A stretch of DNA of 64,000 nucleotides from Ginglymostoma cirratum (taxonomy: Eukaryota): the NCBI GenBank assembly GCA_024137785.1, contig JAHRHZ010000009.1, positions 26,969,216-27,033,215 of the forward strand. Reading direction: 5' to 3'. The notes beneath the pieces are model-generated. The model worked only from the letters and a program-made list of their open reading frames with translations. It was not told the origin of the DNA and made no database searches. The translations under genes and the position numbers were made by a program. Numbering within the stretch: the stretch's first letter is position 1; each line of letters starts with the position of its first letter. Below are positions 6,466 through 58,000 of this stretch, one piece after another.

Positions 6466-6639
6466 CTAGACTCAGGCTCACCTCTATTCTCCATTCCCTC
6501 CGGGTAAGTTGAAGAAGTTAAAAGTTGGAGGAGAAGAGGGAAGAAAAGCTGCAGAAAAGAGAAGAAAGGAAAAGGAACTGGCAAAACAGAGGAGCTCTGG
6601 CTGGAGCATCCTACTCTGCCGCCATCTTGAGACAATGAA

Positions 6640-6790
6640 CAGGAAACATTGGTTAGATTTGCAGACGATAAAGTAGTTGCAGCAAGTACAGAGGAAGATT
6701 TACAAGAACTAATAGCTAGACTAATAATGGCAGACATGAACATGGGAATGGAAGTGAATATTGGCAACAGTGTGATGATACGTATCCCAC
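6640..6790 (+). mobile_element. Degenerate LINE reverse-transcriptase fragment (RTE-like)
   Basis: Translation VRFADDKVVAASTEEDLQELIARL...GMEVN contains the FADD catalytic motif and the typical downstream helix. Confidence 0.6.
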
Positions 6791-7059
6791 AATCACCTGC
6801 AAAGCTGAATATTTCTGAGCACTGGAATAGCATTGTGAAAGGTATATATGTGAATGACACAGTTTATCACCTCCTCTTATTAACTTCTGCCCCAATCTAC
6901 CAGTTGCTTACGAACAGTCTGACTCACTGGTTTAGATAGTTCCAATTAATGATGACTCAAATTTGTTTTCTGGGCTTTAAAAAAAGATATTCTGGCAGCA
7001 GGAAAGCTGGGTGTGAATTTCTTCTTGGGTTTTCCAAAATGAGTACAAATGCCTCCAAG

Positions 7060-7320
7060 ATAAAAGGTACTGCAGATGCTGGAGAATCCGAGATAACAAG
7101 GCATGGGGCTGGATGAACACAGCAGGCCAAGCAGCATCGTAGGAGCAGGAAAACTTGACGTTTCGGGCCTAGACCCTTCATCAGTTCTGAAGAAGTTAAA
7201 AGTTCTTCATCAGAACCTTCATCAGTTCTGATGAAGGGTCTAGGCCCGAAACGTCAAGTTTTCCTGCTCCTACGATGCTGCTTGGCCTGCTGTGTTCATC
7301 CAGCCCCATGCCTTGTTATC
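7060..7320. mobile_element. Palindromic Penelope-derived insertion with 15-bp TSD
   Basis: Perfect 93-bp inverted repeat (7092-7184 and 7228-7320); flanking direct repeat ACAAATGCCTCCAAG at 7045-7059 and 7321-7335; arm sequence nearly identical to the Penelope 3' end at 56341-56467. Confidence 0.88.
7228..7258 (+). ncRNA. Minimal type I hammerhead ribozyme core (mirror copy on the minus strand at about 7154-7184)
   Basis: CUGAUGA-A-GGG(UCUAGG)CCC-GAAAC-GUC; has the conserved CUGANGA, GAAA and UH boxes with a palindromic ACGU stem III, as described for Penelope-like elements. Activity untested. Confidence 0.7.
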
Positions 7321-8267
7321 ACAAATGCCTCCAAGTCCTTTTAACATTGGAGTTTGTTGTCCACCGACAAATATGAAGAGGAAAGAAATGCAGAGTAAAA
7401 AATTGGGCTGCCCATGCACTATAATGAAAATTTTTAAAAAATCACTGGGAATACTCAGCAGATCTTGCAATATCCTTGGAAAGAAAACAAAGTTTTTCTC
7501 ATGTCAAATACGTCTTTTCTTCAGCATCTATTTGACTTGAAACATTAACTCTATTTCTCAAATGCTGTCAATCCAACAGAGTACGTTCAACACTTTCTGG
7601 TTTTGTTGCCCCTGTACTCTATAATTAGTTTGCCATTAACAGCCAAGACTCATTTCATCCACATAACAAGTAACCCAGTCTTCCTAACCCATGTGAATGA
7701 AACATTTCCCATTATTTGAGGTCAAAAAGCACTGAATAACGAAAAGACAAGAGTAGGATTCTCTTTAATAGCACATAATTATTTCACAGTGGAGTTTGAA
7801 ATTGATCTTCAGTGATACTGCACGATAGACAATTGTGCATCAGCAGTCCATGTCATCTATTTAGAATATTTAAAATATGTTAATATTTAACATATTTCAA
7901 ATAGCGCTGCTTTATTTAGTTTCTTGAACATACGTGCTTTTCAGGAGCTATGCTAAATTCTGAACGGTGATTAAATATGACTGCCCAGAACAAGTCTTTT
8001 ATGGACTGCAGCATGAAACAATTCTGTAATGATGAGCTGAAATTAACTCAAAAGTGACGTGTTCATAATATATAATTTACTTTGGCTACCTGTACCAACA
8101 AAATTCCTTACCACTGACAGATCTGATTTTCACCTCAGGTTATCATTTGAGTAGCCTTCAAGAGACCTCTCTCAGCTCGTCAGTCAGGCCCAGATACTAG
8201 CTAGCAGGATTTTGGAAGATTGTCTAGACTGACTGAGTTGCTATTGTGTTCAGATTCAATTCCCAGG

Positions 8268-16036: not shown

Positions 16037-19000
16037 GTTTGTAAGTTTTGATATTCCTGTTTCTACGTATACATGTATAAACCAGTTTATTCATAAATCT
16101 AATGTAACCATGTGAGGCTGAACATATTTTTGCCATAGTCCTCTAATTAATGTCAGCAGGGCTGTCATTGCAGGAATAAGTAATGTCACAAAACAACTAG
16201 GTGATAGAACAAAGAAGCTATTATTTAATGGATAATGCAAGCAGTGATGCACCGATAATCTTATCTGCCATCTCTTCGGGTATTCTTATTATTCCCAGGC
16301 CTCAATTATGTTGGGATAAAACTAACACAATTGCCCCTATTGTAGTGAGGTGTATTTTAAAATTAAACCAAAATAAAATCTACCTCTTTCACTCCTGTTT
16401 TTCTAACTTTTGTGAAATCCTTTGTCCACTGGCACGTTGTTACAGAACTTTCGTCGAGCTATCACAAAATGATCAAAGAGATTCCAATAATTACATTTCC
16501 TGTCTGATGATAACCCCATCCAAAATTTCTCCCTTTCAGTACCTGGAACTTTCTTTGTATTTGGAGACAGTGATCAAGACTCAACAGGAGTCAATGATGT
16601 TTGTTTTAGGAATTGTAACAGAGAAAGATATTGTTACATTATCATTGGACAAGTTAAAATGGCACCTTCGATAATCACTGGTAGGAACATTTATTTTGAA
16701 TTCAAAACAATTCATCCTCAAAAATAAAGGAGAAAACATTTCTGTAGGTTACCTGTTTATATACATTTTATTTCCTGTATTAATCTTTCCAGAGTTGGTG
16801 ACAGTTATTGACATGTTTAAAGTGAAACCACCTCAAGTGATGCACTTCTTCAAAGACTCTTTGCATCGTACTTAAAATTGAAACAAATATAATCAAACTG
16901 AAAACAAAAATTGACTTGGGTATTGTTTAGTCTGTGATCTGGAATTCCAAGCTTTAGAAGTTATGGTGAAGGTAAAGTCAACATAGTCCCAGCTTTCGTA
17001 AGAGAGTGACGATAGGCGTTGGTTTAACCTGAGGGTCACCACACCTTATGTGAGGGGAGAGGTTGAGATGCACTATGGGATCTCATGGAAGCCCCAATGC
17101 TAGTAGTCCTTGGGAATCACCAAGCAGTGTGATCTTCCAATGGACATTTACCCTGCTCTTCAGCATCCTCTGAAAGTTTGTCTGATTCTGAGTAAGAGCC
17201 AAAGCTCTTTGGATAGTTCTGGATGGGTACCCAGAAAATACTGGGAAGTAAAAATCCTGCTCTACCTCCCGAACAATTGTACAACTAGCTCCCCCAATGG
17301 TTCATACTGATTCCACCTCTTCCCCACCACCACCACAATCTATCCTTTCCTGATGCTCCAACTAACCCCCGATCAGACCCCATGAATACCCCCTACACAT
17401 CCTTACTCCCCCTGACCTTTCTAATCACTCTCCCACCAACCACCCTCTCCACACATCACTCTATCCAGCTGACACCATGCCACTTGTCACCTTACCCCCT
17501 TATTCGCATTACCCCCTTCACCCACCCCTCCCCTTACCTAAATACCCATCCTAACCCCTCACCCGACCTACTCCCTTTCCAACGTAGATTATCCATCCAA
17601 AATCTGATCCAATGCATTCCCTCATCTGCCTTACCCCCTCACCTATTAAAGTTGCCAACAGTGTCCTCCTTACTCACTTACATCATTAATCCTACCCTCT
17701 TACCCACCCTCTCCCCTCACCCACCCTACATCCCAACCCAACTTGCCCATTGCCTAATAAATTTACTCACTCTGCCCCATGATACATTTGTTTTCTCATT
17801 GTACCTCTTCGAGAAAACCTTTGGGACATTTAAAATGACCAGGGTGTGACAGCTAGTTTTGTAAAAAGGGAATGGGGTTTATGTTCATCCTCTACCTATG
17901 AAGCAGCTCCATTTCAGGTTCACTCAGGAATTTCTGGACAAGAAAGGACCAGAAATGTGGAACTCATGTAGCTGAGAAAAGCAGGAAACAAGTGGCAATC
18001 TGATGGTTCTTGTCACTGGTCGGAGATTTGGGCCATTGATTTTGTAAAGGATGCAGTGCAGATTTGCTGGTATGATACCAAGTGCTCAACAGATTAAGTT
18101 TTGAAAATGGATTACCCAGATTATTCAGTTGGAAATACAAGACGAAGGGATGATGCAACTGAAATGCTTAGAATGTTAAGGATTTGCTAGGATGGATAGA
18201 AATTATTTCATGTGGTAGGAGAATTCTAAAGAAGACATAAACCTTAACATTAGAGCTGGACCACTCAAGAGTGAAGTTAGAAAGCATATACAAAGAGAAG
18301 CATCTACTGTACAATCAGGTATTCTCTCCTAGTATAAAGGAAAGGTTTAGAGACCCTGTGAACTGACAATTTCAAAACTAAGTTTGCTAGATTTCTGCTA
18401 GGAAAATATATTAATGGTTATGGAACAAAAGCAGGGAGATGGAGTTGAGAGACAGATCAAACAGGATGTAAATGGAAGTCAGTACAGATAGTTGAGATAA
18501 CAAGGTGTAGAGCTGGATGAACACAGCAGGCCAAGCAGCATCATCATAGGAGCAGGAAGGCTGACGTTTTGGCCTAGACCCTTCATCAGAAAAAAGGTCT
18601 TAGCTCCTGTCCTTATATATTACTGAGAGTGGAGAGATTGTAAAGTAGAAGAGGAAAAGGACAGAAATAAAAGTAGTTTCCTGTAAAAAAGGACCAAAAT
18701 GGGATGCACCTGATGAGTTGAATGACGTTTTCCATTTCTACACTTTTACTTACTGATTGATTTTCTGCTTTCATCCGTGATATTGTTTTTACCATAGTTT
18801 TTTATAGATTATAAAATTTCAATTTCAGATGAAGACAGGGATCAGGTTATTCGGGAAACAAAGAAGAGGACTCGCTTAATAAACGATGGTGACTGGATTA
18901 AAAGCAAACCATCAGACGAATCACAGTAAGTGCTAAACCACATTCTTAAAAGAAGAATGTGGAACAATCGTCCTTTTGACTTTTCAAACGTGCCGCATTT

Positions 19001-22000
19001 AATTTATTAATCTGTTTGAAATGAACTTTAATAAATGGTGTTCTAACAAGGTGAGCAGTGATGAATCAGCTAATCTCTTTCCAAATCTTTTTGTTTGGTC
19101 ATGATATTGATTTAAGTTCTTTTTAGCACGAGGCTATACCTCTCTCCAACCAAAATGTAATTAATTAGACATTGCTTTAGCAGCTAAGGAGCAAATCATC
19201 TACGAAATCCTGCTCACTTCCTTGCTGAAGATTCCAGTCTATATTTAGCAGTTTTTCCACTGTTCTGTGTTTGTTTGCAATGTCCACTTCATCCTCAATG
19301 TAATAACTAATTACTGTATCCTGACATATGCCGGACCCTGATACTGGCCAGGGAAAATTTTGTTTAATTTCATCCTTTACAATGCATTTCTTTAATTTCT
19401 CTCACAAGTCTAACTAAACACCTCAATTTCCACCCTTTTGACAGCTACATTAAAATGACTGTTGACATAGTTGGACTCATAATCACTTCTAACCTCAGGT
19501 GGATCCTCTACTTGTCAGTTGCTAATGCTTTGAAAATAGTCTGCCATTTGCTGACTGACCATTCCATGGCAAGCACCAGCCTCCTTTCCTCCATCCTCAA
19601 TGTTGTGGTGAGGGTATGTTTTATTTTAAATTCTGTAAACATACATATTTAATTTAAAAAATTGTTCTTTATTAACAGGCACATGGCAACTGATGTCAAC
19701 TATGGAAAATCTGCACTAAGCCGAGCTAAATCCAGTGAAGGCCTGAACAGGTAAAAATATTCTTCTACATTGAATTTAGTTCTGCCTTGCACATCTTACA
19801 TAAGGGTAAAAGGACAGATCATAGAAACATAGAAGATAGGAGCAGGAGTAAGTCATTTGTATCAATGATAGCCACAGGTGAGGTTCCAGAAGACCAGCAG
19901 TTGGGTAATGTTGTGCCACAATTTAAGAAAAGTGATATGGAAAGGCCAGGGAACCATAGACCAGTGAGACTGAAATTGGTAGTGGGAATCCTGAGGGACA
20001 GAATTTACATGTGTTTGGAAAGGCAAGGACTGATTAGGGATAGTCAACATGGCTTTGTACGTTGGAAATCATGTTTCAATAACTTGATTGAGCTTTTTGA
20101 AGAAGTAATGAAGAGAATTGATGAGGGCAGAGCAGTGGATGTGATCTATATGGGCTTCAGTAAGGTGATTTATAAGGTTCTTCATGGTAGACAGGTTAGT
20201 AAGATTAGATCACACGGAGCACAGGGAGAACTAGCTATTTGGATACAGAACTGTCTCGAAGGTATGAGACAGAGGGTGGTGGTGGATGGTTGCTATTCAG
20301 ACCAGAGGCCTGTGACCAATGGTGTGCCACAAGGATCAATGCTGGTCCACTGTTTTGGGTCACTTATATCAATGATTTGGATGTGAACATGGGAGGCATG
20401 GCTAGTAAGTTTGCGGATGACACTAAAATTGGAAGTCTAATGGACAGCAAAGAAGGTTACCTCAGAATACAATGGGATCCTGATCAGATGGGTCAATGGG
20501 CTGAGGAGTGGCAGATGGAGTTAAATGTAGATAAATGTGAGGTGCTGCATTTTGGAAAGGCAAATCAGGGCAGGACTTTATACACTTAATGGCAGGTGGG
20601 AAGTGTTGCTGAACAAAGAGACCTTGGAGTGCACGTTCATAATTTCTTGAAAGTGGAGTTGTAGGTAGACAGCATAGTGAAGAAGATGTTTGGTATGCTT
20701 GCCATTATTGGTCGATGCATTGAGTATTGGAGTTGGGAGGTCACGCTCTAGCTGTACAGGTTATTGGTTCAGCCACTTTTGGAGTATTGTGTGCAATTCT
20801 GGTCTTTCTTCTAGAGGAAGGATGTTGTGTAACTTGAAAGGGTTCAGTAAAGATTTATGAGGATGTTGCCAGGGTTGGAGGGCTTGAGCTATACTATAGG
20901 GAGAGGCTGAATAGCCTAGGGCTATTTTCCTGGATTGTTGGAGGCTGAGGGGTGACCTCATAGACGTTTATAAAATGATGAGAGGCATAGATCGGGTAAA
21001 TAGGCAAGATATTTTCACAAGGGTGGGAGTGTCCAAAACTAGAAGGCACAGGTTTAAGGTAAGGGAGAAAGATATAAAAGGCGCCCAAGGGGCAACTTTT
21101 TCACATAGAGGGTGGTGCGTGTATGGATGAGCTGCCAGAGAAAATGGTGGAGGTTGGTGTGATTACAACATTTATAAGGCATTTATTTGGCTCTGTGAAT
21201 ACGAAGGGTTTAGAGGGATATGGGCCAAATGCTGGCAATGGGACTAGATTTATATAGGATATCTGGTCAGCATGGATGACTTGGACTGAAGGGTCTGTTT
21301 CCGTGCTGTATATCTCTATGACTCTATTTGACGCCTTGAACCTGGTGTACCATTCAACATGACCATGAAACATGGGTATGCTTATTTAAAGCATCTATTT
21401 GCCTAACTTCACCATGCTGTCTTGGTTATGTTGAGTGATGCAATACAAAGAAATGGTGCTTTTATTTAACTCCATACAAGATAAAAATAATTTATATATT
21501 AAACAAGAATAAATTGTTTCTTTTTTTGAGAAATGGAAATTTATGTCTTCAATAAATTTCAGTGAACACTGAAGGAAGTGTCCTTTAATAAAAAAATGAC
21601 TTTAACCCATTGTGCTCTTTTCCGTATTTGGCATGCTGACAGTAAAACACACAACATTGCAAAAGTTTATATTCACTATGCTACATACAAAGCACACTGA
21701 TCTCAATTAATTTGAATAGCTGTATCTCTTAAATCATTAGTCTGATCATGCACTTTTTAAATTTCGCATTCTTTTTAGAGTTAATGCCTTTTAGCTTAGC
21801 TTGGTGGCATGAAGTACATTGGTTGTATTATATTTCTACTAACATTTTCTGAGCTTGCCTTGTTTGTCCTGTTTACACAGTGATTCAAGTAAGACGAGTG
21901 GTTTGAAGTCAACAACAAAAGCCGATACCATAGATGGACGAAAAAGGTGTGAATTTATTAAAAGATTTTTCAAGAATCAAATAATATATTGCTGTGTTTT

Positions 22001-55000: not shown

Positions 55001-58000
55001 AAATCATTCAGACTGAGCAAAGTGGGAGGGGGGTTCTCAGTGTTGTAGCATAATACTCTTCTGAAGTTAGTGTTAACGCAGACTGTGGCATTGGAAGAGA
55101 ACGAGTTTTACCATGCCTTTGATTTGAGAATTGCTGAGTACTGACACTTTGTGGCTGAAGTAAAATACTACAGGTCATAATTGCAATGATATTATTGATA
55201 AACTTGGCCAAGTGAGTACACAGACTATCCACAAATGTAGCCTAATCCAGCAATTAGGAAGCAGGACTTTCCTACAAATAAATCATTGCCTTTTGTAATC
55301 TGCTGGACCATCTGTCGTCAAAATGGAAACTGAACAATCAAGAAAATATAATTAATATATAAACATTTGTATGTGTTATGCCCAAAGGTACATTGGTCTG
55401 CTGATTCTTTATGCTGAACATTTTTCTATCAGTGACCATTTTCCAATATCTTCCAAGGATGGTTCAAGGAGGCAAATTCCAAGTGTATCCTAACTTAGTC
55501 CAAGCATCAAACCTAGGCATTGGCATTATTTGAGCCACATGCTAGCCACTTAGCCAACTAGTTAGTCCTGTCTAAACACACAGAGATCAAAATTAAAAAC
55601 ACTGCCTTGCAAACAGAATGAGTCATATTCTCAGGCAGGATAAAACTTAAAGGAGGCTTTTTGGTGTAATGGCTGGTGTCACTCTCTGAGTCAGAATCTG
55701 ATGACAATAGCTGGTGGAATTAAATTCAATGAATAAATCTGGAATTACAAGCTAGTCTCAGTAATAGTAATCAAGGCAACTATCATCAATTTCTGCCAAT
55801 GTGGTATACTGCATCCGCTGCACCCGTTGTGGCTTCCTCTACATCGGGGAAACCAAGCGGAGGCTTGGGGACCGCTTTGCAGAACACCTGCGCTCAGTTC
55901 GCAACAAACAACTGCACCTCCCAGTCGCGAACCATTTCAACTCCCCCTCCCATTCCTCAGATGACATGTCCATCCTTGGCCTCCTACAATGCCACAGTGA
56001 TGCCACCCGAAGGCTGCAGGAACAGCAAATCATATTCAGCCTGGGAACCCTGCAGCCCAATGGCATCAATGTGGATTTCACAAGTTTCAAAATCTCCCCT
56101 CCCCCAACCGCATCCCAAAACCAGCCCAGCTCATCTCCACCTCCCTAACCTGTTTTTCCTCTCACCTCAAGCCACACCCCCATCTCCTATCTACTAACAT
56201 CATCCCGCCCCCTTGACCTGTCCGTCCTCCCTGGACTGACCTATCTCCTCCCTACCCCCCTACCTACACTCACCTTTACTGGCTCCATCCCCGCCTCTTC
56301 GACTTGTCTGCCTCCTCTCCACCTATCCTCTCCCCCATTTCTGATGAAGGGTTTAGGCCCGAAACGTCAAGTTTTCCTGCTCCTATGATGCTGCTTGACC
56401 TGCTGTGTTCATCCAGCCCCATGCTTGTTATCTCGGATTCTCCAGCATCTGCAGTACCTTTTATCTCTGTCGTAAAATTCCATCTGGTTCACTTATTTCC
56501 TTCAGTGAAGGAAATCTTTCATTCTTACTTGGTCTGGCCTATGTGTGACATTAGGCCCACAGCAATGTGGTTGACTCTTAACAGTCCTCTGAAATGGTGG
56601 AGCAAGCCACAGAGATCAAGGGCAATAAGGAATGGACAACAAAAACTCTGCCAATGATGCCAAAGTCATGTGAAAGAATAAAGAAAAATATCACGTGGTA
56701 TTTTTATTAAAATTATTGGTAAAATATATGCCTTAAATTCTGAATAACACTTCGTAATATGTGTAATTATTGGTGTTTCAGGAAAGTGGTAACTTTCTAT
56801 TGATGTGTACTGCATGTTTATTATGTGGGTTTCTTTGGCCTCTTATTTTCTAGGTTTTCTACTTCCCTCTCTTTGACTGCCTAAAATGAAACTGACAACA
56901 GACAGTGCTGGCACATGATATATGCTGCTTTTGGTTCAGAAAAGCCAGAGACTTCCTAAGCATGATTTCACACCCACTATGAGTTTTTCCTTTTGTTCCT
57001 TTGTTGTTAAACGCCACAGTGTCTGTTTGGACTTCCAGCTCAGGAAGGGAACTATCCAAATTAAGATTTAAACTTATGCCCAGACAATGGGCAAGTGAGT
57101 GGTGCCCATTTGTTTTATCTTCATTTTCAACAAAACAATTTGCTGTTTGTTCATTTTTTTACCCTATATATCTAAACGTGCTGTGACACCAGAACAACAT
57201 AAGTGATCAGCAAAATAAAAGATAAAATGATCATCTTGTGCCTTTTGGCTTTTTCATGTTTCTCTGAAAAGTACTCCTCTCTTGGAGCAGGTAGCTCGTA
57301 TTGAGTGCTACAACAAGCAATACTTTTAGTATCTTGTCAGTAATTTTGTATAAATATTTAATTGTTTGGTTTGCAGGAGATCCTCAGATAAAAATAAGTG
57401 CAGCCAGTGTTACAAACCCATCGAACACGGTGCTAAAATGATCTTGGAAGAGCTGAACATTAATTGCCATGCTGCATGCTTTAAGGTATAAGTTGCAGAA
57501 TAACAAAACTACTTTTTCTAGATTATTGTACTGTAATGGCTAACATTAAAAACACTATAATGTGCAAACAAATATTGTTTACATCATTCACTTTTTCTTA
57601 ATTTAACCTATTTTTCTAATCAACCTATTCAGAGATATTATTACATACCTCTGGAGCAGGTGAGACTTGAATCCGGGTCTCTCGGTCCAGGGGTAGGGAC
57701 ACTACCAACTGCACCAAAAAAGAGCTCTCATACGTCATTTGCTAAGCGGTGTGGTTAATTGTTTCTACCTTTTCCCTATCAACCTGTGGGAAACAAGGAA
57801 TATCCACTTAGATTAAAGCCCTCCATTATCAATTTAGTTAACATCACAAAATCATCATGTGCACAGTCACAGGCCCATATGTATTATCTGACACTCTGCA
57901 TAATTTTGACTTCAGCTGGTGACAGGAGTTCGACCTAAAATCAAAATTCACCACTTTCTGTCAGTTTAAGCATCTCCATAAAAGATTTACTAGCCAAGCA

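Follow-up and report, generated by a model that had tools for sequence, protein, structure and literature searches.

How a short, perfect palindrome bearing a hammerhead core on each strand came to be inserted in the genome, and whether it represents a working ribozyme, a member of a replicating family or a by-product of another element, are the questions raised by positions 7045-7335 of the 64,000-nucleotide stretch of DNA analysed here (hereafter referred to as the window). A sequence-only reading of the window had taken it for a young insertion derived from a Penelope-like element (PLE), being either an extreme truncation product or a MITE-like unit. The locus itself is an ordinary dead-end insertion without an open reading frame (ORF). 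As a class, however, such stubs provide testable rules, namely that each pair has one tail, that its arms share a source RNA and that the 5' end is fixed at a point other than the ribozyme cut site.

Structure, parentage and hammerhead cores of the insertion

The insert spans 261 bp and consists of two arms, at 7092-7184 on the reverse strand and 7228-7320 on the forward strand, which are exact reverse complements of 93 nt with no differences and are separated by 43 nt (7185-7227). An extra 32 nt at 7060-7091 (reverse strand), outside the left arm, continue the 3' end of the element and match 56433-56464 of the window; judged from the Anolis element, this tail would lie between the two start sites of the reverse transcriptase (RT). 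The right arm is untailed. A 15-mer is exactly duplicated at 7045-7059 and 7321-7335, and the palindrome, the left tail and the duplication described in the sequence-only reading are all confirmed. The 43-nt centre is a patchwork in which the 5' end of the arm is repeated once in sense orientation (11 nt) and twice in antisense (11-14 nt), as would be expected of repeated short template jumps at joining. The two arms start at 0 and -2 relative to the core, not at the ATTT boundary discussed below, and two minority alleles are present in both of these identical arms.

The arm together with the tail is 96.8% identical over 125 nt to positions 56341-56464, the 3' end of a 5'-truncated copy of the parent family that lies outside the insertion at 55771-56467 (forward strand) and comprises a GIY-YIG endonuclease frame, a 3' UTR, the hammerhead end and the tail. 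The frame upstream of 56341 matches Pfam PF01541 (E 2.2e-6). Translations of the family copies carry two cysteines between GIY and YIG, a CX4CxxC linker occurs upstream of the endonuclease in copy L025, and a DKG motif is present in the frame of copy L231. A CX2-5CxxC linker, a DKG motif before the RT and two cysteines inside GIY-YIG are given as marks of Neptune/Nematis-type PLEs in the available text of PMC8557442. By these sequence features, the insert is composed of two back-to-back hammerhead-bearing ends of an EN+ Neptune-type PLE, and the Penelope origin proposed earlier, with an inverted pLTR and tail, is supported by the parent match, the endonuclease frame, the tail and the duplication. 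Some family copies run upstream into the 3' UTR and endonuclease frame, and in others the tail is followed by the beginning of the ORF with its DKG motif; the hammerhead-plus-tail segment is thus present at each end of the unit. When ten loci were extended, only 5' portions of the ORF were recovered and no RT core; L231 ends before that core and has no Pfam match.

Among 90 frames of at least 62 aa in window positions 1-22,000, only two weak RVT_1 matches were found, near 19.7-20.6 kb; these correspond to LINE-type reverse transcriptase fragments at 19739-20586 (forward strand). At 18494-18589 (reverse strand) lies another untailed arm, a solo one from an older subfamily (87% identity), which also begins at the core after a run of six Ts.

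In a relative (organism B), three DNA runs out of three, from three different studies, carry an empty site with a single 15-mer. Three contigs from this organism align with 6500-7044 or 6881-7044 and then run straight on at 7321, their flanks differing by about 4-6% from the window. The 15-mer is therefore a true target-site duplication (TSD), as the sequence-only reading had supposed, and the insertion is younger than the split from organism B. The young age proposed earlier is supported by this absence from a relative whose flanks are about 95% identical, and by the lack of any difference between the arms. Run X1 of organism A yielded two 151-nt flank pieces with no differences, neither of which spans the insertion.

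Each strand carries one hammerhead core (CUGAUGA, a bulged A, a 4-bp stem II, GAAA and CGUC), starting at 7228 on the forward strand and at 7184 on the reverse strand, with the cut predicted after 7255 in the forward core (7228-7255). By sequence, the motif conforms to the minimal type I hammerheads found in animal PLEs. The stem II pairs are kept in nearly all of 263 family motifs, with a U-G/U-A exchange at pair 4 in 10 motifs and almost no two-sided change. Helix I, to which the four bases before the core contribute, has 3-4 pairs in 223 of these 263 motifs; the minimal type I form has about 4-5 bp, compared with 2 bp on the forward core of the present copy and 0 bp on the reverse core, where no pair adjoins the core. 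The covariance-model search proposed in the sequence-only reading returned no hammerhead from Rfam for the palindrome, a single arm or the copy at 56.3 kb, and the palindrome gave only sub-threshold matches to miRNA hairpins. The claim of a core on each strand holds, all core residues being intact, but helix I is largely lost in both, which the sequence-only reading had missed, and neither core is a whole ribozyme. The whole RNA is predicted to fold as one hairpin of -223.8 kcal/mol (z of -30 against 200 shuffles), which would sequester the ribozyme as had been anticipated. Since its cores are short of helix I and would be locked in this hairpin, self-cleavage of this copy is predicted to be unlikely. 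Further, a minimal hammerhead requires a partner core, which no single transcript of the palindrome can provide, a point also missed by the sequence-only reading.

The genome-wide class of inverted ends

The genome searched (4.36 Gb) contains 51,102 exact matches to the 31-nt core and 3,433 head-to-head junctions with centres of up to 30 nt, the latter being an upper bound on the loci of that pattern, with 4 of the first 50 listed being gap duplicates. The centres range from 4 nt to patchworks of at least 40 nt and mostly differ between copies. A MITE family is marked by uniform length and common internal sequence; here the centres vary from 4 to 43 nt and the centre of the present copy occurs at only three loci. 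The class is therefore not a MITE family, and the MITE-like reading fails for it; for this particular copy the matter is less simple, as its 43-nt centre recurs at two further loci. The alternative reading of extreme truncation is correct as regards truncation but not as regards random 5' ends, since the ends pile up just before the core.

Many palindromes of this class are interrupted by gaps of 400 Ns, with the centre duplicated or flipped (for example L002/L011, L022, L067 and L091), and the assembly therefore probably miscounts and may misassemble them; the identity of the arms may likewise have been partly homogenised by assembly. In one inverted pair with a TSD (L196; G000:C2, ~16.926 Mb), the arms enclose about 180 bp of unrelated DNA, which is foreign sequence captured during insertion.

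The inner ends of the arms share a 5' boundary. In an unbiased set of 100 arms (the first 100 listed of the 51,102 core matches), 45 start 0-7 nt before CUGAUGA (7 of these beside a gap), another 4 start at 8-23 nt, and the remaining 51 extend into the body of the element. Genome-wide, with four mismatching upstream bases demanded at each position to equal stringency, the number of copies starting at ATTT is 2,622, compared with 460 for the cleavage site and 133 and 218 for two control positions. The ORF-bearing copies L142, L145 and L164 begin at the same ATTT boundary. A G precedes ATTT in 51 of 69 junctions (the first 100 of the 2,622, less 29 plain palindromic centres and duplicates) as against 14-15 of 69 at the three positions before it, an excess that a cap-templated base would give. 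Among the TSD-resolved solo copies, a single clean extra G is present in one only (L297), many other Gs being explicable by the target, the partner arm or re-priming. T-runs of at least 4 occur in 16 of 38 short arms and in none of 51 body-linked arms. From this sequence pattern we read the shared boundary as the capped 5' end of an RNA; if start sites lie close to either end of the mRNA, short and body-linked copies should arise at similar rates, which matches the counts. Partial tandems in L142, L164 and L231, composed of a core, a tail and a varying length of the ORF start joined directly to a second arm starting at ATTT, look as if run-off cDNA had jumped to another RNA.

The ribozyme cut site was rejected as the main 5' boundary, as copies starting there show only a 2-3.5-fold excess over the two controls, with indel contamination; several of 30 cut-site starters inspected are indel variants of whole copies. 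The 2-3.5-fold excess is possibly a trace of cleavage in vivo, or else of A-rich microhomology. A splice-acceptor origin, which the accessible part of PMC4209133 gives for such a boundary in Penelope of D. virilis, was also rejected, as no AG precedes ATTT. For the same element, PMC2377424, as far as its available text goes, describes an internal promoter whose start site falls within the pLTR.

The outer ends were scored in 67 distinct inverted pairs from all loci fetched, 42 of which came from samples picked by similarity or pattern. A TSD of at least 9 bp flanks 47 of the 67 pairs and measures 13-16 bp in 37 of the 47. One tailed and one untailed arm are present in 42 of the 47 TSD-flanked pairs, the remaining 5 having a damaged end; none has two tailed or two untailed arms. 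The unbiased sample from contig 1 is made up of such mixed pairs throughout (13/13). Among all 67, there is one pair with two tailed and one with two untailed arms, both lacking a TSD. Partner arms are concordant at 153 of 164 diagnostic sites (93%), compared with a mean of 49% and a maximum of 72% in 2,000 shuffles, which suggests that both arms usually derive from the same RNA or source, with a few pairs (L025, L071) discordant at linked sites. Among 26 gap-free pairs selected by hand, 9 have a tailed arm that extends further 5' than its partner, 5 have a longer untailed arm and 12 have arms of equal reach; four of the five untailed-longer cases were inspected, and the untailed arm exceeds its partner in L146, L196, L242 and L264. 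Untailed arms end at the same site as the solo copies. Two separately primed cDNAs fit these observations best, since no tail could be templated by a cDNA begun at the inner site, and a tailed cDNA that folds back cannot yield a longer partner.

Origin of the palindrome

Direct observations establish the insertion with its TSD and parent family, as well as the regularities of the class. The palindrome is a single recent insertion and was probably produced when the enzyme of the element primed on the two strands of a cut staggered by 15 bp, with both cDNAs extending until they ran off what is probably the 5' end of the RNA. The mRNA would start about 4 nt before CUGAUGA, in a context (CC/ATTT) that resembles an initiator when the Inr consensus is taken as the yardstick, and would carry two start sites for reverse transcription, 32 nt apart, with one set of them close to the 5' end and a second set at the 3' end. 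Priming at the outer site by one nicked strand would produce the tailed arm, and priming at the inner site by the second strand the untailed one, mostly on the same RNA; with the 5' copy of these sites in use, each cDNA would end after about 95 or 128 nt. Short template jumps would then join the two cDNA ends into a patchwork centre. The expected product is a dead-end copy without an ORF, its cores lacking most of helix I and trapped in a hairpin. The available text of PMC11167929 describes an Anolis enzyme, predicted to be a dimer, that cuts and extends both strands and starts internally at two sites bracketing the tail, and the twin-priming reading agrees with both its two-strand extension and its two start sites. 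Two features of this copy speak against the model: its arms do not begin at ATTT, and its centre is common to three loci, which independent formation does not predict. A second complex centre that recurs at four loci tells in the same direction.

The shared centre could instead have been inherited, the RNA having already held the 43-nt centre, either as a mini-palindrome or as a full element with an inverted 5' pLTR, such that one cDNA ran through the arm and the centre into the mirror arm before annealing to a second cDNA; palindromes would then re-mobilise at a low rate. The accessible part of PMC3846280 indicates that pLTRs alone can mobilise sequence in trans. The identical 43-nt patchwork occurs at C9 (the present locus), C144 (47.517 Mb) and C250 (1.605 Mb) with different flanks and TSDs, on which grounds segmental duplication was rejected as its source, and an exact 27-mer from the centre is found only here, at C144 and twice at C250. 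Such a patchwork is unlikely to have arisen three times, so that either the RNA was re-copied or the assembler borrowed a path. The copies at C144 and C250 are, however, both broken by 400-N gaps; at C250 the centre appears two times, once in each orientation, and the left piece breaks off after 45 nt of the arm, about where an assembly-graph edge of 48-mers would end, presumably with an assembler K of 48. The C144 arm has the alleles of another subfamily. A borrowed assembly path could explain the sharing in view of the gaps, the flipped centre and these alleles, and the evidence points to an artefact for at least part of it. A 22-nt centre, chosen as it had already been seen twice, is better supported: it is identical at four loci with different flanks (L301-L305; C1, C77 and C218), one of them gap-free and two orientation-consistent, with six-T runs on both arms and a tail on varying sides, and may denote either low-level re-mobilisation or a recurrent joining chemistry. 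As centres are diverse across the class, with at most three copies of the 43-nt one, we regard inheritance of the centre as a minority possibility for this copy.

The remaining explanations concern the boundary, the second strand and the function of the unit. A stall of the RT at the C-rich tract upstream of the core, rather than a transcription start, is unlikely to set the boundary, and would alter only the RNA-start and cDNA-end steps of the model; a C/T-rich tract does begin right at the boundary, but 51 of the 100 arms pass it, only 4 end at 8-23 nt, and neither the G excess nor the lengthened T-runs would be expected of a stall. That one cDNA snapped back and copied itself, or that an antisense template primed its own copying, a model put forward for Adineta elements in the available text of PMC3846280, would account for the identical arms here, including their two minority alleles, and for the high allele concordance of the class. 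It appears improbable nonetheless, given that untailed arms end at the solo-copy site, that they reach further 5' in the four inspected pairs and that linked sites are discordant in some pairs. Twin priming is better supported by the data than the published self-priming proposal, even if single cases may differ. Least of all do we expect a functional RNA unit, be it an active ribozyme, a retrozyme or a hairpin-RNA gene. The core nucleotides are all intact and a transcript with a 93-bp hairpin could feed small-RNA pathways, but helix I is 0-2 bp, helix III and a same-strand partner core are absent, the predicted hairpin is extremely stable, the insert is missing from organism B and it is not a tandem array. 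Moreover, the parts of the literature available report no cleavage of minimal PLE hammerheads as monomers (PMC4209133) and cleavage of the Anolis one only with protein (PMC11167929). The analysis suggests that most solo hammerheads in this genome are by-products and not working ribozymes.

An extended form of the twin-priming reading is put forward tentatively. One enzyme dimer may engage the two start sites of a single capped RNA to prime both strands of a cut with a 13-16-bp stagger, which would leave exactly one tailed and one untailed arm. Use of the 5' sites would give strong-stop-like stubs that end at the transcription start, which is also the beginning of helix I, and some palindromes may have been re-copied with their centre intact as a nascent non-autonomous lineage. 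If this dimer-priming reading is true, the palindromes are a genomic record of an unsolved step of Penelope integration.

Relation to known Penelope-like elements

The layout of the locus is already published: an inverted pLTR, one tail, a TSD and minimal hammerheads on opposite strands. As far as the available text of PMC4209133 goes, the minimal type I hammerheads of metazoan PLEs likewise have a bulged base before stem II, a G10.1-C11.1 pair, no loop 3 and a palindromic CG at 15.2/16.2, and occur as pairs 100-700 bp apart on opposite strands besides many single motifs; in the present copy stem II has 4 bp and the junction cuts helix I to 0-2 bp. The non-LTR retrozymes (bioRxiv 10.64898/2026.07.22.740005, in the part available) are also ORF-less, hammerhead-bearing and related to PLE pLTRs, but they are same-strand tandem repeats with at least two active ribozymes. 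Here the two units are inverted relative to each other and each strand has a single incomplete ribozyme, where a retrozyme would have tandem units and at least two complete hammerheads on a strand.

The building of inverted repeats and tails by PLEs is called undefined in the accessible parts of PMC8557442 and PMC11167929. A literature search found no report of the one-tail-per-pair rule or of the shared 5' boundary, although subscription papers, Repbase/Dfam entries and supplements may describe them.

The Poseidon element of Anolis carolinensis (PAc), as presented in the available text of PMC11167929, similarly has a tail between two start sites, extension of both strands and internal initiation just downstream of the hammerhead near the ORF start. 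The present family differs in possessing the CX4CxxC linker of Neptune/Nematis, which Poseidon lacks according to the accessible part of PMC8557442, and in the ATG within its core, which reads into a stop in most family copies; inverted mini-insertions are not described for PAc in that available text of PMC11167929. The closest likeness is to the EN+ PLE insertions (Pen2a_Av etc.) in the available portions of PMC3846280 and PMC8557442, which likewise have head-to-head inverted ends, palindromic junctions, a 30-40-nt tail at one end only and a TSD around the whole unit. The present insert, in contrast, measures 261 bp and has no ORF or direct pLTR pair, and the TSDs of its class are mostly 13-16 bp instead of 8-10 bp; its class comprises thousands of copies with one 5' boundary, a feature left unquantified in those portions of the two papers.
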